Shown: positions 8,547 through 19,534 of the stretch, in pieces
How the letters are laid out: every line of letters starts with the position of its first letter
How positions within the stretch are numbered: position 1 is the stretch's first letter
Assembly (NCBI GenBank): GCA_016839785.1
Contig: JAEOTQ010000218.1
Span: 1-23,482 of the forward strand
From: Candidatus Hodarchaeota archaeon
Lineage (GTDB): Archaea > Asgardarchaeota > Heimdallarchaeia > Hodarchaeales > Hodarchaeaceae
Reading direction: 5' to 3'
DNA length: 23,482 nucleotides
Position numbers and translations under genes: made by a program
Notes under the pieces: generated by a model
The model's database searches: none
What the model saw: only the letters and a program-made list of their open reading frames with translations
What the model was told of the DNA's origin: nothing

Positions 8547-9254
8547 ATGCCAAGAGAAAAAATCACTCACAATATTGGTAGGAAATTTCACAGACGTACG
8601 GATAAAGAAAAGCAGATCTTAACTCAGCTAAGAAAACAATCAAAATTTTATCTGAACTTACTAAAAGACAATGGGATCAAGGCGTTTATTCACGGATCAG
8701 TTGCACGTGGAGACGTGAATCAAGCTTCTGATATTGATATTAACATTCCATATCATGTACCCTCGTTTCGATTAGATGTGATAGAAGAATTCGAAAAATC
8801 CGAACGACGGATAATCATGGGAACACCAAACTCAACTATTAAAGGCTTATTCGTGATTGATGAAAAGGTTTCATTAACTTTTCCATTAACACCGCCTACG
8901 GAGCGTGAGATTGATTTTTATAGGTTTTCAGGACTAATGTATCTAGAAGAATTATTAGAAAAGGTAGGGGTCCCCGGAGTTACAAAGCAATTACTCTTAA
9001 TTGAACCAACGAGGACAGGTTATTGGTATTCATCACTTTTAAGTCAAAAAAAGACGGCAATGAAATTTTTGAATGTTTCTCAGCGAATAATTGATGAACG
9101 AATTCGTGTTTTAACACGTCGAGACAAAATAGGAAGGACTGGGGTAATTCTGGATTATTCCTTCCCTCCCACAACTAATTTTGAACAAGCACTCCATCAT
9201 TTAAGCTCTCAAAATCCCATTGTACGCAATCAGATAAGTAGATCAAATAAATAA
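8547..9254 (+). CDS. Archaeal Pol-beta-superfamily nucleotidyltransferase (COG2413-like)
   Basis: HGSVARGDVNQASDIDI (GS..DxD), plus TPNSTIKG, EIDFYRFSG, VPGVTKQLLLIEPT and ERIRVLTRRDKIGRTG. Confidence 0.88.
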   Translation: MPREKITHNIGRKFHRRTDKEKQILTQLRKQSKFYLNLLKDNGIKAFIHGSVARGDVNQASDIDINIPYHVPSFRLDVIEEFEKSERRIIMGTPNSTIKGLFVIDEKVSLTFPLTPPTEREIDFYRFSGLMYLEELLEKVGVPGVTKQLLLIEPTRTGYWYSSLLSQKKTAMKFLNVSQRIIDERIRVLTRRDKIGRTGVILDYSFPPTTNFEQALHHLSSQNPIVRNQISRSNK

Positions 9255-9324
9255 ATTGAATAATACATTTGAATAATTGTCAATCACTATTCTACTTCAA
9301 TTTATAGAATTTTTCTTAGAGAAA

Positions 9325-10167
9325 ATGCTTTCCGATCAATCAATTGACAGACGTTGGCTTGTTCGCACCTATGATGAAAACAAGGTGTTATTAGTATCAG
9401 ATTTACATCTTGGTTTCGATGTCGAATGGTATAGAAGAGGTCTTTGGACAAAAAAACCAAGCTGGTCACTAGAAATCATACAAAGTCTCAGAAATGATGT
9501 TTTGAAAGTAAACCCCTCTCATTTAATAATTTGTGGCGACTTAGAACATCATTTTAGGATTAGAAGAAAAAAAGAAGGAGAAAACTCTCATATAATCATT
9601 CCAGAAGAAGTACAAAGTTCAATTCTACATAATTTTCAGACGCAAATTCTCGAGATACCTGATCTTGACGTAATACTAGTTCAGGGTGAAAATGATGTGT
9701 CACTCTATCAGCAATTGGAAGATGAATGCCAAATAGTATCTTCTGAAGGGATATCATTTTTTGATAACCAACTGGGAATATTTCATGGCCAATTACCTCC
9801 ATACAAAGAGATTGTTTTTGCTTCAGAAATAATAGTTGGTCATCTCCATCCTGAAATCGAATTAAAAGATGATTTACAAATTCGTCATAAATTTCCAGTT
9901 TTTTTACAATTACAGCTTCCAAGAGAAGATTTATTTCCCTTATTTCAATTTCCCTTTGAATTAGATGAAATTGGCATGGTTGATATGGTTTCGATTACCA
10001 TTCTCCCTACATATAATCACTTCTTATCAGGTTATGTAATGAATATAATTGGTGGAGGCAAGAAACTTCATAAACCATATCCAATACTTCGATCAATACT
10101 CCACCATCCAAATGCACAGGTTAAAATGACTGATGGAATTGATATAGGACTGCTAACAGATATCTAG
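9325..10167 (+). CDS. Calcineurin-like metallophosphoesterase (COG1407/MPE-like)
   Basis: Motifs SDLHLG, GDLEH, G(EN)D, FHG, GHLHP and LPTYN. ATG 9325 is preferred over TTG 9277. Confidence 0.85.
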   Translation: MLSDQSIDRRWLVRTYDENKVLLVSDLHLGFDVEWYRRGLWTKKPSWSLEIIQSLRNDVLKVNPSHLIICGDLEHHFRIRRKKEGENSHIIIPEEVQSSILHNFQTQILEIPDLDVILVQGENDVSLYQQLEDECQIVSSEGISFFDNQLGIFHGQLPPYKEIVFASEIIVGHLHPEIELKDDLQIRHKFPVFLQLQLPREDLFPLFQFPFELDEIGMVDMVSITILPTYNHFLSGYVMNIIGGGKKLHKPYPILRSILHHPNAQVKMTDGIDIGLLTDI

Positions 10168-10180
10168 CACGGTAAACATT

Positions 10181-13021
10181 CTAAGCCCAATATTCCCGTG
10201 TCCGAGCGAAATTTGCCTCATGATGATAGATTGATGTCAATAGGTCCTCAGTTGTTTTATGGGGTTCTCGTAAAATTCGAATAGCGATTGTAGGCCCTAT
10301 TCCACGTCCAGCAAGGACAAAAGCAGCTTTTTTCCCAAATGATAGAATTATATCTGCAGATTTTTTTGCTGTATTTAGTTCCTTTTTTTCATCCTTTGAT
10401 AGTCTAATCTGTTTATTCGTGGATCTTTTTAATAGAGACTTAATACCAGTTTTGTGTTGATTGACAACTGCGATATAACGAGAGTGACAAAGAGGACATT
10501 GAATATCTTCCAAACTTTCAATACGTTGTAACTTCTCATACTTACAAGTCAAGCGCATGCAAACCAAACGAACCCAAGTATTTCGAATTCTTTTCTCAAT
10601 TTTTTCAAGAATGATAGATGAGGGTTTTAACTTCAATACATTTGAGGAGATGGGTTCAGTCGCTGCAAGCGAAAGGGGAGTATCAAAGGAAGCTACAGGT
10701 ACCTCCTCAATTGCAATTTTTTTGTTCTGAATGTCCTCTATGAATTGCATAACGAGATTTTGATTCATATTCTCAGTAAGGATCTCATTAACTGCTTCTT
10801 GTCCAACGATTGTCTCTTTATATCGAGAGACAATGAAACGAGTCATCATAACGGAATTTTCAGCAGATTCAGAAAGAACACCGAATCGTTTTGCCACTTG
10901 CCGGAGACGCCAAGCGAATAAATCTGTACCCTTAATTCGATGTTCTAATAGAGGTTGTACATGCTCAGGTTCAATGGTTTTGAAAATATTCTTAAGACTA
11001 ATTGGACGACCAAGTGATAAGAATATACTATATGGGTCAGTGCGATATTGAATTGAATGTCCCTGACGAGCTCCAATGACTGCCGATAATAGCAATCCCA
11101 GTGTCTCGTTCCCTCTAGAACCTAAAAAACTGTGAATTACTATTTGTCTCCCAGTTGTTTCTATTAACAATTTCCCCTTTTTTGGAGCAAGACCTTTTTC
11201 TTGTTGTTCTCGTAAAAACCTTTTGATTTCAACTTGAATTTCTTTTGTAGTAAATTTGATTGTTGAATCATCTTCAAATAATTCCATGACCGTTGAAGAC
11301 ACAAGTTGCGAAACTGGAATGAGTTCTCCTTCCCATGTAGGAATTGTTGCCTCAGTTATCCCTCTTACTTGCCTAACTTCAACTTTATCATCTTTAATAG
11401 CTAAGAGCTCCCAAGGAGTTCCGTTCAGAATGAAGATAGCTCCTTTATCACCACGAGTAACAATGAATCCTTCATCTAAGTGGCCTACTCGTGCTTGCGA
11501 ACCAACATCAATTACACTATAAGACCGTTTAGTCGGAATACTACTTAAATTCGAATAATAGAATTTATAGGATTTTCTCTTATTTCTAATTGTGATCTTT
11601 CCAGTGTCTGGATCCTTTTCTATGGAGAAAAAGTAATTTTCTTTACCAAACTGCAGAAGGGGCATTAAGTCTTTCAGAGTGAAATGTTGATACGGTGAGG
11701 CTCCAGATATTATCTTGTGAATGGTTTTAACTGATGTTTCCCCGAAATCGAGAAGAATTCCGATAATACATTGAAATAAAATATCGTAAGCATAGGTATG
11801 AATCCTGGTTGGTTCAACTTTCCCTTCCAAAACTCGATTGTTTATTAAAAAGGCCTCTAAGAGCTCTCGGGGAGTTTCTGTTATTATTATACCTTTACTT
11901 TGTTTATCTAGACCGTGCCCTGACCGACCTACTCTTTGAATTAGTGTCTCTATGCGTCGAGGGCTCATATATTGGATTACTAAACTAATAGCCCCAATGT
12001 CAATTCCTAACTCTAAGGAAGAGGTGGCAATAACTAAATCTAAAGTCCCTTCTCTAACATCAGTTTCTGCACGCAAACGACTTTGTGTAGATAAACTGGA
12101 ATGATGGACCTCAAATGATATTTGTTCTTCAGGTGGAGTGAATTCATTATACATTTTGAAACGATAACCAAGAATTTCAGCCTGTTGACGAGTATTGGTG
12201 AATAAAAGAACTGTACCCTCCTCTTGCTCAATAATTTCTAATAAACGTTGAAATCTAGATGCGGCATCTTCAGTAGTATGGATAGTAGTGGGCAAATCTT
12301 TATAATTTTCGTTTAAAACTTTTGGGTAGTCAAGTTGTAAGCTTAGTTTCTTCAAACGTGGAATCTCAACGATACGAGCGTTATTATTCTTTGGAGAGAG
12401 GAATCTCATAACTTCAGATGGAGAACCCACCGTTGCCGATAATCCGATACGCTGAATCGGATTATTCACTCGGTGAGATAATCGTTCTAAAGCTAATGAT
12501 AGCTGGATCCCTCTCTTTGATTCAACAAGCTCATGAATTTCGTCGATGATCACAGTTTGAACATTTCTTAAATGGATACGCCCAAAGATTTTTGCTGGGA
12601 GGAGGGCTTGAAGTAATTCAGGTGTTGTAATAAGTATTTGAGGAGGATTCTTGGTCTGTTTTTGTCGCTCGTAAGGTGTTGTATCGCCATGTCTGACCGC
12701 AATCGTAATTCCTAATTTCGAGGCTAATTGAGGAAGAACTCGTCTAAAAATATCGCGATTTAGAGACTTTAAAGGTGTGACTATCAATACTCTTACAGGT
12801 GTTGGATCACTAAGATTCAGGATTTTATGTAAACATGCAATAATTGTTCCAAAAGTTTTTCCTGAACCAGTAGATGCGACTACAAGAACATCTTCATTTG
12901 AAATTATGGCTTTCAGATATTCAAGTTGACCTGGAGTTGGAGAAATTTCTAAATCATCTAAAATGTCCTGAATTCTCTTATCTAGAAGTTCAAATGACAA
13001 TGGTAGAAATTCTCCTTTCAC
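10181..13021 (-). CDS. lhr: Lhr-family SF2 helicase with C-terminal Cys-rich Zn finger (aLhr1-like)
   Basis: STGSGKT, TPLKSLNRD, RHGDT, ITTPE, DEIHEL..SKRG, GLSAT, HHSSLS, TSSLELGIDIG, QRVGRSGH and IPTWEGE. The C-terminus has CMRLTC..CPLC and LAGRGIGP. The start may be TTG 13000 (MSFELL). Confidence 0.93.
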   Translation of the reverse strand: MKGEFLPLSFELLDKRIQDILDDLEISPTPGQLEYLKAIISNEDVLVVASTGSGKTFGTIIACLHKILNLSDPTPVRVLIVTPLKSLNRDIFRRVLPQLASKLGITIAVRHGDTTPYERQKQTKNPPQILITTPELLQALLPAKIFGRIHLRNVQTVIIDEIHELVESKRGIQLSLALERLSHRVNNPIQRIGLSATVGSPSEVMRFLSPKNNNARIVEIPRLKKLSLQLDYPKVLNENYKDLPTTIHTTEDAASRFQRLLEIIEQEEGTVLLFTNTRQQAEILGYRFKMYNEFTPPEEQISFEVHHSSLSTQSRLRAETDVREGTLDLVIATSSLELGIDIGAISLVIQYMSPRRIETLIQRVGRSGHGLDKQSKGIIITETPRELLEAFLINNRVLEGKVEPTRIHTYAYDILFQCIIGILLDFGETSVKTIHKIISGASPYQHFTLKDLMPLLQFGKENYFFSIEKDPDTGKITIRNKRKSYKFYYSNLSSIPTKRSYSVIDVGSQARVGHLDEGFIVTRGDKGAIFILNGTPWELLAIKDDKVEVRQVRGITEATIPTWEGELIPVSQLVSSTVMELFEDDSTIKFTTKEIQVEIKRFLREQQEKGLAPKKGKLLIETTGRQIVIHSFLGSRGNETLGLLLSAVIGARQGHSIQYRTDPYSIFLSLGRPISLKNIFKTIEPEHVQPLLEHRIKGTDLFAWRLRQVAKRFGVLSESAENSVMMTRFIVSRYKETIVGQEAVNEILTENMNQNLVMQFIEDIQNKKIAIEEVPVASFDTPLSLAATEPISSNVLKLKPSSIILEKIEKRIRNTWVRLVCMRLTCKYEKLQRIESLEDIQCPLCHSRYIAVVNQHKTGIKSLLKRSTNKQIRLSKDEKKELNTAKKSADIILSFGKKAAFVLAGRGIGPTIAIRILREPHKTTEDLLTSIYHHEANFARTREYWA

Positions 13022-13349: not shown

Positions 13350-14276
13350 TTGGAAAATCTAGATATAGGTGCCCAAGCTAGCCAAATTGTAGAAAAAATT
13401 TCTAACGCTATCGAAACCTCAAAAGAGGAACGTGGAATGGATGGAATTGTAATATTATTTTCGGGGTACATTGATTCGACAATCATTGCCAAGATAGCAA
13501 TGGATACATTTGAAGAAGGAGAAATCCAACTTCTAGTCAGATCTGAGAGTATTTTTGATAAACACACCGAAGCACTAGAGAGTTCGATTAAGTATCTGGG
13601 AATCTCGGAATCGAGTATAGTTCATTGCGATATTGCTCCTATTATAAAACCATTTAGCTCTGATGCATTAATTCCTGGTCGATCTCGTGAAGTACCCTCT
13701 CTTTATCAGCCCTTAAGTTATTCTTTACTGAAGTCTTCATTAATTAGAGAGATTGAAGGGAATACTTATGATATGGTGGGAAAAGCAGAATCAGAACGAG
13801 AGCGATTGCTCCATAAGGTAATTGCACATAATAAACTTCGATCTCGAATTCAAATGGCCGTCGCATATTTGACTGCTGAGACAGAAAACGCTCTTCTTTT
13901 GGGTACAATTAATAAAACTGAGCTCCTAACAGGCCTCTTTACTAAATGGGGACATGGACATTGTGCTGATGTTATGCCACTTGGAAATCTATTCAGAACT
14001 CAAATATTACAGCTTGCTGATCATCTAGATATCCCCTCCCAGATAGCAAATAAGGCCAAAGCTGATTTATTACCTGGGATTCAGAATAAATATCAATATT
14101 TTTTTGAACTAAGCTCGTTAGAAGTTGACAGGATTCTCGTTCGATTGGAACATGGACTTTCGACCAAAGAAATTAGCAATCAAACACAAATTAATGCTGA
14201 ATCTATAGAAAAAGTAAATCAATATTTTGCTTCTTCTGTATACACTCGTAGCGCGCCCCTTATCCCAAAAATTTAG
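13350..14276 (+). CDS. Divergent NadE (NH3-dependent NAD synthetase)-like protein, paralog 1
   Basis: SGYIDST (compare SGGxDS), KLRSRIQM, GTINKTE, GLFTKWG, ADVMPLGNL and ADLLPG. A GGTGA Shine-Dalgarno lies at 13338-13342 before the TTG. Confidence 0.85.
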   Translation: MENLDIGAQASQIVEKISNAIETSKEERGMDGIVILFSGYIDSTIIAKIAMDTFEEGEIQLLVRSESIFDKHTEALESSIKYLGISESSIVHCDIAPIIKPFSSDALIPGRSREVPSLYQPLSYSLLKSSLIREIEGNTYDMVGKAESERERLLHKVIAHNKLRSRIQMAVAYLTAETENALLLGTINKTELLTGLFTKWGHGHCADVMPLGNLFRTQILQLADHLDIPSQIANKAKADLLPGIQNKYQYFFELSSLEVDRILVRLEHGLSTKEISNQTQINAESIEKVNQYFASSVYTRSAPLIPKI

Positions 14277-14304
14277 TGTAATGAACTAGTATAGTAATTT
14301 AATA

Positions 14305-15822
14305 CTAGATAATATGAAGAACGAATCCAAGGAATGTTAGATACACTCCACTGAATAGCAAAAGTAGGAGTGAAATAGGTACTAATTTTTTCATGAAGTA
14401 GATAAAATTAAGTGGACGTCCTTCCTTACTCAGAATCGATATCGCTAAAATTGATGCGGCACTCCCAAATGGAGTCAATCCTCCTCCAAAGGCACCGCCA
14501 AAAAGTAATATAAACCATAGATAATGTGGATTGGCTCCAGTTGCTGGGAAACTTTCGACAATAGGAATTAACGCTGCAGTTACAGGAATATTATCCAGAA
14601 TACCACTAACAAAAGAGGATATGAGGAGAATCAGTCCACCTGCGATAATAATATCTCCACCACTGATATCAGTTAATGAATGAGCAATATCTTCTAAAAT
14701 TCCTGTTGCTTCAAGTGTCCCAACTAGGATGAATAATCCAGCAAAAAATAGTAAAGTATCCCAATTTAATTCACGTAAAAGACGATGCTCATCACTACGT
14801 GTTAATACAATGGATAATATACCCCCTATTATCGCGACTACTCCGATTGGGATCCCAAATACAGAATCGGCAAGAATAAACCCAATTATTGTTAAAACTA
14901 ATGATAATGCTGCTAAGTAAAATCTCTGTGTATCCTCCACAACTCCCCATTCGTCAAGAGACAAAATCATTTGCGTATCGAGACTGTCCTGTGTACCTTT
15001 ACCAAGCGGAATATTTTCAGGGGGAAATACTCGTTTAAGGTATATAATTGTTAGAGGAATTGCAAATATCAAAAAAGGGATAGAAACTACTAAAAATTCG
15101 AGAAACTCAATACTTCCTCGAGAACCAACTAAAATTGAAGGAAGAGAGCTAATAAGTGTCGCCATACCAGCCAGGCTTGTTGCTAACACAGCTCCTAAGA
15201 GAAAGGGAGTTGGATCATAATCTAATCCATTGGAGACTGTAAGTATCATAGAACTTATTAGAATCATGGCTGTTACATTAGCAAGAACCGTGGAAAGAGC
15301 AAATGTGAGAAGAAAAGTCATTACAAATAGAGGAAAAACTCGACCTTTAGAAATTTTTAACATACGTATGATGATCCAGTCGAATAATCCTGTTTCTGAA
15401 GTCGCTTCAACTAGAATAGACATCCCGAAAACAACTGCAAGGACTTCCCATTCCATATAACCATGGAAAGGATCACCAGATGGCAGAACAACTAAAGACC
15501 ATTTGAAACTATCAAATAAAAAGGAAGCTAGTAACAAAGAAATGCCGCAGGAGACAAATATAATAGTAATCTGTCGTTCATGGTATAAAGCGACAAGTAA
15601 AAAAGTTCCAACGAAGATGACTCCAAATAAAAGTATATTCGCAATACGTGGAGAGAAACCATAAAGCTGTTGGAAGATTAAATAAGAAATAATTAATCCA
15701 ATTAAACCTATGGCGATTTGAGGGATCCAGGAAGCTCTTAATTGATTTAAATTAAACCATTTCTCATAAAATGACTGAATTGATAACATTAAGGAATTTC
15801 TGTTTCTCTTCTCTTCAGTCAT
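14305..15822 (-). CDS. ArsB/NhaD/CitMHS (IT superfamily) transporter, P-protein/OCA2-like
   Basis: 505 aa, multi-TM, with WEVLAVVFGMSILV..ETGLFDW, LANVT, NWDTLLFFAGLFILVGTLEATG, SGILDNIP and GGGLTPFGSAA. Confidence 0.9.
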   Translation of the reverse strand: MTEEKRNRNSLMLSIQSFYEKWFNLNQLRASWIPQIAIGLIGLIISYLIFQQLYGFSPRIANILLFGVIFVGTFLLVALYHERQITIIFVSCGISLLLASFLFDSFKWSLVVLPSGDPFHGYMEWEVLAVVFGMSILVEATSETGLFDWIIIRMLKISKGRVFPLFVMTFLLTFALSTVLANVTAMILISSMILTVSNGLDYDPTPFLLGAVLATSLAGMATLISSLPSILVGSRGSIEFLEFLVVSIPFLIFAIPLTIIYLKRVFPPENIPLGKGTQDSLDTQMILSLDEWGVVEDTQRFYLAALSLVLTIIGFILADSVFGIPIGVVAIIGGILSIVLTRSDEHRLLRELNWDTLLFFAGLFILVGTLEATGILEDIAHSLTDISGGDIIIAGGLILLISSFVSGILDNIPVTAALIPIVESFPATGANPHYLWFILLFGGAFGGGLTPFGSAASILAISILSKEGRPLNFIYFMKKLVPISLLLLLFSGVYLTFLGFVLHII

Positions 15823-15860
15823 TTAGTAAATCTCCAGAAAATATTCGCACAAGAAAATTG

Positions 15861-15930
15861 GGGGATGTTAATCAGGTTTTGCCTGATTCATAGGCCCTAA
15901 AGAGCTATTAAGCTCTTAACAACCTTAGGT
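15861..15930. promoter_or_regulatory. Cluster of inverted repeats between the divergent transporter and NadE-like paralog 2
   Basis: AATCAGG-TTTTG-CCTGATT (15870-15888), AAGAGCT-ATTA-AGCTCTT (15900-15917) and ACCT-T-AGGT (15922-15930). There is also outer complementarity between GGGGATGTTAA and TTAACAACCTT. Confidence 0.45.
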
Positions 15931-16052
15931 ATATTCATAGTAACGGTATATTATTGTCTTTCGAAATGTTATTGACTAGAGGGGACAAATCAATGGTAGA
16001 GAAAGATAATTTATTAGAAGGCAAGGTCATTCCTTGCGTAGGAGGAGATTAA

Positions 16053-17003
16053 TTGAATTTGGAACAGGCACTAAAAATTGATTCCCAGAAAGCACAATCG
16101 CAGATTGTTGATTTTATGCGGTCGACATTGAAAGAGCGCGATATTGAAGGACTGGTGATCCTTTATAAAGATTGTATTGAAAGTTTAATAAATTGTAAAT
16201 TAGCTGCGCAAACTATTGGATGGGAAAATGTCAAATTAATAGTTCCTCGTGGCCGTTTCAGTACTGACACCACAACACGAAGTTCTGATTTACAAATAAT
16301 TAAAAAACACCTCGAAATTTCTAATGACAACTTAATTCTCGTTAATATCCAACAGGCAGTAACTGCAATAAATAATTTAACTTTTGAAAAATCTAAAACC
16401 GCTTATGGATCAACCACTCTAGGAACCAATCCTCTCTATAATTATAATCTAAGTTATTATCTTCTACGTGGTATGACTCACTCTGAAATTGAGGAGACGA
16501 CATTCACTGCTCCCTCAAGGAGGCCTAAAACTGACCGAGAGATTTACCATCAAAAAACCATTGCTCATTATAAGAGTAAGATTCGTCTTCATATGTTACT
16601 AGGATACTTGGTGGCTGAATCTGAGAATAAATCTTTTCTAGGATCTGTAAATAAAACCGAGTGGTTATTAGGATTATTTACTAAGTTCGGTACTTATCAT
16701 GCGGCTGATTTTCTTCCACTAGCAAACCTCTATCGAACACAAACAGTCCAGTTTGGAGAATTTTTGGGATTAGGAGAATATTTAAGAACCAAAAAGCGGG
16801 AAACTCCCACTAGCTACAAATATCTCTTTGATCTTACCTATCAAGAGGTTGATAGAGTCCTAATTCGGCTTGAAACAGGAATGACTATAGATAATATCCA
16901 CAAAGAAACATCAATTTCGAAAACCAGTATCGAGAAAATAGTAAAAAATCATGCTGGATCTAATTATGCTCGTTGCGTTCCCCTGATTCCCAAGCTTAAT
17001 TGA
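16053..17003 (+). CDS. Divergent NadE-like protein, paralog 2 (PP-loop degenerate)
   Basis: VILYKDCIES occupies the SGGxDS position. It also has KIRLHM, GSVNKTE, GLFTKFG and ADFLPLANLYRTQ. A strong AGGAGG Shine-Dalgarno lies at 16040-16045. Confidence 0.83.
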   Translation: MNLEQALKIDSQKAQSQIVDFMRSTLKERDIEGLVILYKDCIESLINCKLAAQTIGWENVKLIVPRGRFSTDTTTRSSDLQIIKKHLEISNDNLILVNIQQAVTAINNLTFEKSKTAYGSTTLGTNPLYNYNLSYYLLRGMTHSEIEETTFTAPSRRPKTDREIYHQKTIAHYKSKIRLHMLLGYLVAESENKSFLGSVNKTEWLLGLFTKFGTYHAADFLPLANLYRTQTVQFGEFLGLGEYLRTKKRETPTSYKYLFDLTYQEVDRVLIRLETGMTIDNIHKETSISKTSIEKIVKNHAGSNYARCVPLIPKLN

Positions 17004-17024
17004 GAGAAAAGAAAAAGGTTGAGG

Positions 17025-17595: not shown

Positions 17596-18354
17596 TTAAA
17601 TGAGCATAGAAGCGTAAAGGAACAATAGTGCAATAAGTCCAGCAAAGATACATAGGTGGCCCATACCATCTATGCCTAACATTACACTCAAAGTCTTTTT
17701 ACCAGTTTTTTTATCCGATTCTATATCAGCAATGTCTTGATAGGGCACCAAAGCGAAAACAAGAAGAAAAATGAAGATAGAATAGAGAATTACTGATGAA
17801 TTGATCATCCAATTTTGAGAAAGATAAACCCAGTAGAAAGCTGCGAGATAAGACATAGTAGTAAAAATTTCATGACCCAGAGGTATTTCTTCTGTAAGGA
17901 AATTTACAAAGGTTATAACTATGAGTATTGGAATTCCGATTAAGAACAAACTTAATTGGTCATGATCGAGAAATAAAAGAGTTGCCTGTAAAATCCCTGT
18001 TAAAATAGCGAAGACAGTTATTATACGACCTGCATTGCGTACGGTACTTTCTGTCAATATACCATCACGAATAATCCCCATACCCCCAATGACTTCATCA
18101 TATCCCGAAGCCCAATCTCCTGCCTCATCTCGATAGTGTACTCCAATAGCTGAAATAAGTGTAGCAAAAATCGCAAATACGGCATGGAATAAATTAAGGG
18201 TTAATTCTTGAATTAATCCCTGCACCAGAGCCCCTAACGCAATAATAAGATATGCAATCAAAAATTGAGGACGAGTAAGCTTAATAAATCCTAAAACCTT
18301 TGAAGCTGGTAAAGTTTGTTGTTCATTTGTTTTATTCATTGTAGTTTCTGTCAT
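17596..18354 (-). CDS. UbiA-superfamily prenyltransferase (MenA-like motifs)
   Basis: IKLTRP, a first Asp-rich motif RDEAGDWASGYD, a second QDIADIESDKKTGKKTL, and multiple TM segments. Confidence 0.85.
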   Translation of the reverse strand: MTETTMNKTNEQQTLPASKVLGFIKLTRPQFLIAYLIIALGALVQGLIQELTLNLFHAVFAIFATLISAIGVHYRDEAGDWASGYDEVIGGMGIIRDGILTESTVRNAGRIITVFAILTGILQATLLFLDHDQLSLFLIGIPILIVITFVNFLTEEIPLGHEIFTTMSYLAAFYWVYLSQNWMINSSVILYSIFIFLLVFALVPYQDIADIESDKKTGKKTLSVMLGIDGMGHLCIFAGLIALLFLYASMLI

Positions 18355-19231: not shown

Positions 19232-19534
19232 TCATTCCTTCTTTTTACTCCAATCAGAATTTTCAGGCCATTGATGGTCTGCTTCTAGTGTTTCAATCTC
19301 GAATATAATCCCTGTTTTGGAAGGACAATGAATTTTCCAAACACCATCTGTTTCCCAAGAGCGAGACCCTCCGGCTGCCATACTTAAATAGGGAATTAGA
19401 ACATAATGCGCATCATCGCATAAAATTGTTTTTCCAGTTGGTTTCATAAGGGCATAAGGAGTTTCCCAAGATTCACCTACCTTATGAGGGCAACTTCCTA
19501 GTTTTTGAACTACACGGACTCGGAGATGTTTCAT
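19232..19534 (-). CDS. Small Cys-containing protein, TIGR04076-like
   Basis: The pattern VRVV..GSCPHKVGE...LCDDAH..LIP....GG...IHCP...IIFEIE matches the three-Cys layout as I recall it for this family. Confidence 0.7.
   Translation of the reverse strand: MKHLRVRVVQKLGSCPHKVGESWETPYALMKPTGKTILCDDAHYVLIPYLSMAAGGSRSWETDGVWKIHCPSKTGIIFEIETLEADHQWPENSDWSKKKE

Follow-up and report, generated by a model that had tools for sequence, protein, structure and literature searches.

Two genes with the fold of NAD synthetase (NadE) lie on either side of a permease gene in contig JAEOTQ010000218.1 of Candidatus Hodarchaeota archaeon (GenBank assembly GCA_016839785.1). Do they make NAD and, if not, what ties them to a transporter? 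The window referred to below is the whole stretch of DNA that was analysed, 23,482 nucleotides, and is contig C201 of the 4.04-Mb assembly, which is 84.5% complete. The two NadE-fold paralogs are designated P1 and P2 (Table 1). Our analysis makes it likely both that neither is an NAD synthetase and that they have a functional tie to the permease. More specifically, we tentatively favour the reading that P1 and P2 belong to a family of remodelled NadE-fold proteins, specific to their lineage and maintained by selection, which no longer act as NAD synthetases and work with the permease between them.

P1 and P2 aligned from end to end with 35% identity (E 7e-53), far past chance, and the original prediction of two NadE-fold paralogs flanking a transporter was confirmed. 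Both matched the Pfam domain NAD_synthase (PF02540, cut-off 21), P1 with 115.5 bits and P2 with 70.9 bits. On the NCBIfam equivalog for NAD+ synthase (NF010587, cut-off 255) they scored 134 and 110.9 bits, respectively, about half of the cut-off, and on TIGR00552 (cut-off 63.65) P1 passed with 110.5 and P2 failed with 58.7. The motif SGGxDS(T) is described as the family signature in one paper (PMC3376133) and as an ATP-binding motif in another (PMC9283937). This PP-loop reads SGYIDS(T) in P1 and KDCIES in P2, and neither carries the NadE signature; of all the changes this is the most diagnostic, and the original prediction had not named it. In a HMMER alignment to the NadE chain of B. subtilis, the position of D173 (the Asp of TK(Y/F)GDGG) was occupied by H in P1 and by T in P2. 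It was Asp in none of 24 P1 genes, which have H, R, Y or Q, and in none of 26 P2 genes, which have T, I or S. In the same alignment P1 retained equivalents of R137/R139, E162, T169-K170 and D177; those of R139, E162, T169-K170 and D177 were invariant in the clades. To R139, E162, K170, D173 (catalytic) and D177 we assign their roles in the B. subtilis enzyme.

The motifs and the insert that had been listed as common to the two paralogs were all present in the alignments. P1 and P2 have in common NKTE..GLFTK.G..H.AD..PL, a terminal PLIPK, RIQM/RLHM and TKWGHG/TKFGTY, and both lack the GQTDE stretch. From the PP-loop to the Arg helix they have 106-128 residues against about 72, and this segment is thus some 35-55 residues longer; it is also extra relative to the canonical NadE of the same genome. 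Four tested features of NAD synthetases were absent from P1 and P2, and they were not classified as such.

That canonical nadE was found on another contig of the assembly, C140. Its product scored 249 bits on PF02540 and 284.2 on NF010587, and has SGGIDS and GDGG. The gene overlaps a CN-hydrolase gene by 11 nt (locus L001, 641-3718), and beside it lie a glutamine synthetase gene and one resembling class-II glutamine amidotransferases. The cluster looks like a clustered two-subunit glutamine-dependent NAD synthetase, an arrangement that De Ingeniis et al. named type C and described as uncommon in archaea (PMC3376133). C-terminal-half matches resembling that to the canonical nadE were seen in 18 of 21 related genomes. 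Because the genome has a separate canonical nadE, neither P1 nor P2 is the housekeeping enzyme. The same had been predicted from the letters of the locus, and the loss of NadE motifs from both paralogs agrees with it; P1 is, in any case, not the only nadE of the genome, which was the check that had been proposed.

The family has a narrow distribution. A search with P1 returned 88 proteins, mostly from Hodarchaeales or Heimdall-type metagenome-assembled genomes (MAGs) and labelled 'NAD(+) synthase', and a search of 1.84 billion representatives with P2 returned only 10 proteins at E <= 1e-30. In a survey of species-representative genomes (E <= 1e-25 to P2), 19 of the 20 others in one genus-level Hodarchaeales group had the family; the exception was a genome of 1.4 Mb that is 71% complete. 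It was found in none of the 280 sampled genomes from 69 other Asgard genera. A contig scan with four relatives labelled 'Odin' gave 15 archaeal loci, all from the same genus-level group, and one weak bacterial match, adding no new lineage. The original prediction had called for a search for the trio across Asgard genomes; the family was found in this one group only, and the exact gene order of the window, P1-permease-P2, recurs in just four other genomes (G019, G004, G011 and G006).

From the 48 loci that were fetched we obtained 24 P1 genes, 26 P2 genes, seven genes of a third clade (P3), one masked P2-like copy and one long NadE gene with an intact PP-loop. P1 orthologs within the genus-level group share 48-86% identity and the clade motifs SG[Y/F/H]xDST and G-x-G-H-x-x-D. 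At the altered PP-loop position all 23 readable sequences had a bulky residue (Y in 17, F in 5, H in 1), and S-G-x-x-D-S-T was invariant in the 23 aligned. The P2 clade is marked by [YF][KRS][DY][CS]xE[SV] and GTYHAxD, and none of its 26 genes keeps the Gly-Gly or the Asp of SGGxDS. P3, a third degenerate NadE-like clade, has SGQxDS and GYGH, and its TK is often changed to TS, TT or TP. It occurs in loci L030, L032, L039, L047, L052, L063 and L072 and was not found in the assembly of the window; a 203-aa (amino acids) protein with a transglutaminase core follows it in five of the seven loci, and an M20-peptidase-like gene precedes it in three.

In a maximum likelihood tree of 47 rows (IQ-TREE, LG+C20), the P1, P2 and P3 clades each received 100% support. 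Together with four metagenome proteins labelled Odinarchaeota they formed one clade (support 100/100) on a stem of 1.03 substitutions per site. NadE-like proteins with an intact PP-loop, including the canonical NadE of the same genome, fell outside, and FastTree on 147 rows agreed on the P1/P2/P3 clade (support 99). The ratio of nonsynonymous to synonymous substitution (dN/dS) was 0.05-0.10 in five diverged pairs of P1 genes and 0.51 in one near-identical pair with a dS of 0.03. For P2 six pairs gave 0.05, 0.09, 0.12, 0.23, 0.25 and 0.42, and for the permease one pair gave 0.04. P1 and P2 are under purifying selection and are not eroding; the description of the paralogs as eroded was mistaken, both genes being intact.

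One explanation that would leave the database names untouched is that P1 and P2 still make NAD (or NMN), as redundant or back-up synthetases with a tolerance for odd motifs, their linkage to the permease being inherited synteny without meaning. The label given to P1 orthologs points in this direction, as do the TIGR00552 score of P1 and the presence of an NMN synthetase (3fiu) among the best structural matches. It is contradicted by the lost (P2) or altered (P1) PP-loop, the replaced Asp of GDGG, the equivalog scores, the canonical nadE of the genome itself and the long stem branch, as well as by the linkage described below, which recurs in different genomic contexts with co-diversification. 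We consider this explanation extremely improbable.

For the linkage, ORFs (open reading frames) of the loci were clustered all against all. This gave one large cluster other than NadE, c1, which consists of 21 CitMHS permeases and includes the permease of the window. Of the 26 P2 genes, 16 have a c1 permease as their immediate neighbour, in divergent orientation; in three more there was one gene between them (L068, L070 and L073), and in L040 the neighbour of P2 was a CitMHS fragment that is joined to a Pyr_redox ORF. The loci had been selected by their NadE-like genes, and for this reason the CitMHS counts were checked against the background. In five genomes with 2-7 CitMHS genes each, all six P2-clade genes of at least 260 bits had one beside them, one of these being a fragment; no CitMHS gene was found beside a seventh, masked P2-like copy in G016 (L041).

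The permeases form three deep lineages with branches of 1.16-1.36. Among the permeases, all three of the subclades B, C and D are monophyletic (support 96-100) and match subclades of P2, also in genomes that contain two different pairs; one permease lineage adjoins a P1 subclade instead of P2. The distance matrices of P2 and permease correlated with r = 0.50, a value reached in none of 2000 permutations (19 loci), in a test that is inflated by the relatedness of the genomes. The 16 divergent P2-permease intergenic regions, 15-427 bp long, were searched for common 8-mers, and none was present in more than five of them.

Two close relatives carry what amounts to a natural knock-out, which is the strongest single observation for the link. 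In G014, P2 is cleanly deleted (window positions 15960-16970) and the reading frame of the permease beside it is broken into three, with TGA and TAA stops. In G002 the deletion spans window positions 14577-17024, and P2 and most of the permease are gone. In both relatives the P1 gene and the downstream OsmC gene are intact. Of the 24 P1 genes, 12 have a c1 permease or P2 as a neighbour, and three more have permease remnants there. The conserved unit is P2 with the permease, which constitute an evolutionary unit, and P1 is an optional third member; the whole is a real, conserved, lineage-specific module. The core of the original prediction holds up better than its details. The prediction that the transporter linkage would be conserved was thus upheld by adjacency, by co-diversification and by joint loss with P2.

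It could still be argued that the linkage reflects co-regulation or a common response to stress or nutrients only, and that P2, with or without P1, acts apart from the permease and its cargo, for instance as a nucleotide-binding stress protein or as a regulator with other targets. In the window the permease is convergent with P1 (28-bp gap) and divergent from P2 (230-bp gap); since it lies on the minus strand between them, the three genes do not form one transcript, and in most loci the genes are likewise divergent or convergent and not co-transcribed. Four P2 genes (L028, on a 2.7-kb contig, L048, L066 and L074) and nine P1 genes have no nearby transporter, and MarR-like (c28) and PadR-like (c55) regulators and Ras-family GTPases recur near P2. 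All this would suit mere co-regulation. Against it stand the three deeply diverged permease lineages, which all adjoin NadE-like genes with matching subclades, and the coincidence of P2 deletion and permease decay in two relatives whose P1 and OsmC genes are intact. Co-regulation alone is in our opinion improbable.

What the proteins do was approached through conservation and predicted structure. The best conserved stretch is the old active-site loop, NKTE...TK...D..P: its mean column conservation is 0.86 in P1 (0.70 overall) and 0.88 in P2 (0.68 overall). Around the PP-loop, P1 is conserved (0.81), whereas P2 does not rise above the average (0.67). The extra segment as a whole is average, yet one motif in it is invariant (NYNLSYxLL in P2, LSYSLLK-like in P1). 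AF2 monomer models of both proteins have the NadE fold. The P1 model has a mean pLDDT of 74.8, with values below 50 in the extra segment (residues 104-145); the P2 model has a mean of 65.5, with values below 50 in the extra segment (residues 112-155) and low values in the NKTE-TK loop (199-217) and the C-terminus. In Foldseek the best match of the P2 model was the NadE structure 2e18_A (E 2.6e-9, TMt 0.73), and the top matches were all NadE or NMN synthetase. ESM Atlas look-alikes of P2, with PF02540 excluded, were weak leads of PP-loop type, the best (0.92) being unnamed clusters of 214-221 aa. A complex prediction for P2 with the permease scored 0.01 against a mark of 0.32; it was run without controls and speaks neither for nor against binding.

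Other assignments were looked for as well. Neither P1 nor P2 matched the USP domain PF00582 at E <= 0.01, and by sequence they are not USPs. A match of P2 to HTH_7 (E 0.0029, below the cut-off) spans C-terminal helices that canonical NadE also has and was not read as a DNA-binding domain. A PADLOC scan of P1, P2, the permease, one P3 and one c8 protein assigned no family. Among proteins of 554-2000 aa, no fused (Rosetta-stone) forms of P2 were found at E <= 1e-20, which is weak evidence.

As P2 has no PP-loop, it would be unable to hold pyrophosphate in the usual way and is most simply seen as a ligand-binding pseudoenzyme. P1 may still bind ATP. In the mechanism that we propose, the retained active-site loop and Arg helix would bind a ligand of adenine-nucleotide type, which for P1 could be AMP or ATP and for P2 a ligand without pyrophosphate contacts. 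The proteins would assemble as NadE-type dimers, either P1:P2 or homodimers, and would adjust the permease, or what becomes of its cargo, in a ligand-dependent manner, by analogy with the USP-type logic of TeaD. That the tie to the permease consists of such regulatory ligand sensing rather than catalysis is a possibility to which we incline with more reserve than to the family's working with the permease as such.

The main rival is a new adenylating enzyme that acts on the cargo. In this neo-functionalised enzyme P1 would be catalytic, with an altered PP-loop that still binds ATP and its new His residues taking part in catalysis, and P2 would be its non-catalytic partner; a carboxylate carried by the permease would be adenylated and then amidated or otherwise modified. 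Several observations weigh against our own reading, and a number of these are the ones that the enzyme would explain. The Ser, Gly, Asp, Ser and Thr of the P1 PP-loop are invariant, as are the equivalents of R139, E162, K170 and D177, and P1 may still be an adenylating enzyme. Two P2 genes (L060 and L064) lie beside an MFS transporter instead of CitMHS; pairing with two transporter families fits a common substrate better than a specific protein-protein contact. In G020 P1, P2 and an MFS gene form a co-directional cluster, with gaps of 30 and 53 bp. The neighbourhoods contain genes for amino-acid and peptide metabolism, namely formiminotransferase, cyclodeaminase and FolD, GGACT, and M20, M28, M42, M29 and S58 peptidases. 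The MFS-linked loci and the amino-acid and one-carbon genes that follow some permeases fit the enzyme better than a regulatory role. The PP-loop family offers a precedent in which a catalytic protein is paired with a non-catalytic one (PMC10067955).

Other points count against the tie to the permease more generally, beginning with the four P2 genes without a nearby transporter. No NadE-like gene was found within the fetched flanks of four intact C-type permeases (G004:C196, G014:C185, G002:C45 and G013:C75) or of the lineage-iii permease of the genome itself (C198), so P2 is not obligatory for every permease of the family; the C-type permease of this genome lies on C183 with its start only some 300 bp away from where the contig ends, and its neighbourhood is uninformative. 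P1 and P2 are not present in a 1:1 copy number per genome. Finally, all the genomes come from one genus-level group, and their kinship inflates both the synteny counts and the permutation test.

The enzyme has difficulties of its own. The position aligned with D173 varies in P1 (H, R, Y or Q), which makes a new catalytic residue unlikely there. Many P2-permease loci have no P1, and the copy numbers of the two do not match. A substrate cannot be named, and the genes nearby vary from subclade to subclade. We also know of no active PP-loop enzyme with a bulky residue at the second Gly. On balance we regard the enzyme as rather unlikely, and the remodelled family that works with the permease remains the reading we prefer.

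A bolder version of this reading is that P1, P2 and P3 are a new class of NadE-derived pseudoenzymes that sense ligands as subunits of secondary transporters, in a 'transceptor' module confined to Hodarchaeales and in some lineages wired to the Ras-family GTPases adjacent to P2. This we hold to be decidedly improbable; if true, archaea would have a case of nutrient or energy sensing that takes place at a transporter and is linked to GTPases. A gene for a Ras-family small GTPase (PF00071, 120 bits) is found downstream of P2 in five loci of the D subclade, with a gap of about 280-330 bp, and the loci with such a gene near P2 are L044, L045, L048, L050, L051, L068 and L070. In two of these, GTPase, M42 peptidase and P2 form a tight co-directional cluster, with gaps of 72 and 53 bp in G017 (L068) and of 66 and 53 bp in G001 (L070).

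The permease itself could be named only at the level of its superfamily. It matched CitMHS (PF03600, 172 bits, cut-off 31.9) and ArsB (PF02040, 50.1 bits, cut-off 22.2), and its best solved relative was the arsenical pump membrane protein 10tp_A (E 6.5e-18), with VcINDY-type chains at E 1e-4. It stayed below all NCBIfam equivalog cut-offs (MamN 117 of 500, ArsB 88 of 457, NhaD 47 of 80, DASS 71 of 199). The predicted ArsB/NhaD-type transporter is thus a transporter of that superfamily, and the specific names do not apply.

Some neighbours of the permeases recur as well. A C-type permease is followed by a glutamate formiminotransferase gene on the same strand in L043, L053 and L084, by a cyclodeaminase gene too in L043 and L053, and by FolD in L043. 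The formiminotransferase genes hint at a link with histidine or one-carbon catabolism, in the C-type subclade only. The fused ORF in G016 (L040, 4819-6846) encodes 675 aa and consists of an N-terminal CitMHS fragment (profile positions 9-149 of 336) and a pyridine nucleotide-disulphide oxidoreductase, beside P2; in the genome of the window a related oxidoreductase gene precedes the lineage-iii permease on C198. A gene overlapping the end of the B-type permease (c29) had no Pfam or PDB match worth naming.

The features of the locus are listed in Table 1. The three genes in 13350-17003 are all intact; P2 starts with TTG, and GGAGG is read ahead of the start. P1 also belongs to a block of a nucleotidyltransferase-like gene, a gene for an unknown protein of 296 aa, the Lhr helicase gene and P1 that is syntenic in many relatives (the block includes 8547-10167 on the plus strand). 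The membrane protein and the Cys/His-containing ORF on the other side are both conserved beside OsmC in close relatives. In the metatranscriptomic library X7, contigs of 151-204 nt that were 90-100% alike fell inside P1, the permease and P2, and none fell in intergenic bins. Such contigs cannot show transcription; DNA contamination is possible, most pieces are from relatives, and they are a weak hint at most.

Table 1. Features of the P1-permease-P2 locus and its flanks (window positions)
Feature	Position	Strand	Description
Lhr-type large helicase	10181-13021	-	DEAD, DEAD_assoc and WH_Lhr domains; upstream of P1
P1, NadE-fold paralog	13350-14276	+	308 aa; altered PP-loop SGYIDST; GHGHCAD replacing GDGG-xD
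IT-superfamily permease (CitMHS/ArsB-like)	14305-15822	-	505 aa; PF03600 and PF02040 matches
Divergent intergenic region, permease/P2	15823-16052	.	230 bp; presumed promoters
P2, NadE-fold paralog	16053-17003	+	316 aa; PP-loop lost (KDCIES); GTYHAAD
Membrane protein	17596-18354	-	252 aa; marginal UbiA match, 35.4 bits (cut-off 34.2)
Cys/His-containing ORF	19232-19534	-	100 aa; no Pfam match

Hodarchaeales are the archaea placed closest to eukaryotes, and inferences about the metabolism of the archaeon from which eukaryotes arose draw on them heavily. The label 'NAD(+) synthase' in the databases is probably wrong and would distort metabolic reconstructions of this order. Should P1 and P2, which are small and look soluble, prove to be partners of a permease, whether ligand-sensing or non-catalytic, this would be a new use of the NadE/PP-loop fold, and a clear case of pseudoenzyme evolution as well, with three clades on one stem under purifying selection. 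A literature search, to which most subscription journals were out of reach, gave no description of such NadE-like proteins.

Among known systems, the closest counterparts of the permease are in the IT superfamily (CitMHS, ArsB, NhaD and DASS/VcINDY). It resembles these in its PF03600 score and its match to the ArsB structure 10tp_A, and differs in falling below every equivalog cut-off. For a regulatory role of P1 and P2 the nearest likeness is with USP-type regulators. The USP and PP-loop folds are related. One such regulator, TeaD of the ectoine transporter TeaABC, is listed as ATP-binding in a table of PMC3673472. As in TeaD, a small nucleotide-binding alpha/beta protein would be encoded with a transporter and regulate it, the regulation being in our case suggested by analogy. 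P1 and P2 differ from USP-type proteins in having no PF00582 match, in being twice the size and in their clear derivation from NadE; the resemblance would be one of function.

For a pair of catalytic and diverged subunits the comparison is with the eukaryotic tRNA thiolase Ctu1/Ctu2 (Ncs6/Ncs2). According to PMC10067955, it combines a catalytic protein with a diverged partner that has no catalytic features, in a heterodimer modelled like the archaeal homodimer. Ctu1/Ctu2 belongs to another PP-loop subfamily, has tRNA as its substrate and shows no linkage to a transporter. When P1 and P2 were held against this type of pair, P2 lacked the PP-loop as a diverged partner might, but P1 was non-canonical too and the copy numbers were not 1:1.

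With NadE (PF02540; PDB 2e18, 3fiu, 1xng and 1ee1/1nsy) P1 and P2 share the fold, the Arg helix, NKTE, TK, the AD..P loop and the C-terminal helices. They differ from it in the altered or lost PP-loop, the replacement of the GDGG Asp, the loss of GQTDE and the longer segment, in being present in addition to a canonical nadE, and in their linkage to a permease. They also resemble a wider group of long NadE-like proteins of about 300 aa (P0081, P0100, P0101, P0104 and the L056 protein of G010), which are labelled NAD(+) synthase by their sources in MAGs of Latescibacterota, Nanobdellota and Nealsonbacteria. In L056 (5774-9291) the gene, with an intact SGGLDS, lies between AXE1-like esterase and arginase-family genes, all on one strand. 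The long proteins differ from P1 and P2 in that they keep SGGxDS and the Asp of G-x-D-H and fall outside the P1/P2/P3 clade. They have the longer segment at the same place and the His of G-x-D-H-x-A-D. The His before AD, which had been thought new to the paralogs of the window, is not unique to them, and P1 and P2 have inherited both it and the extra segment from this wider group.

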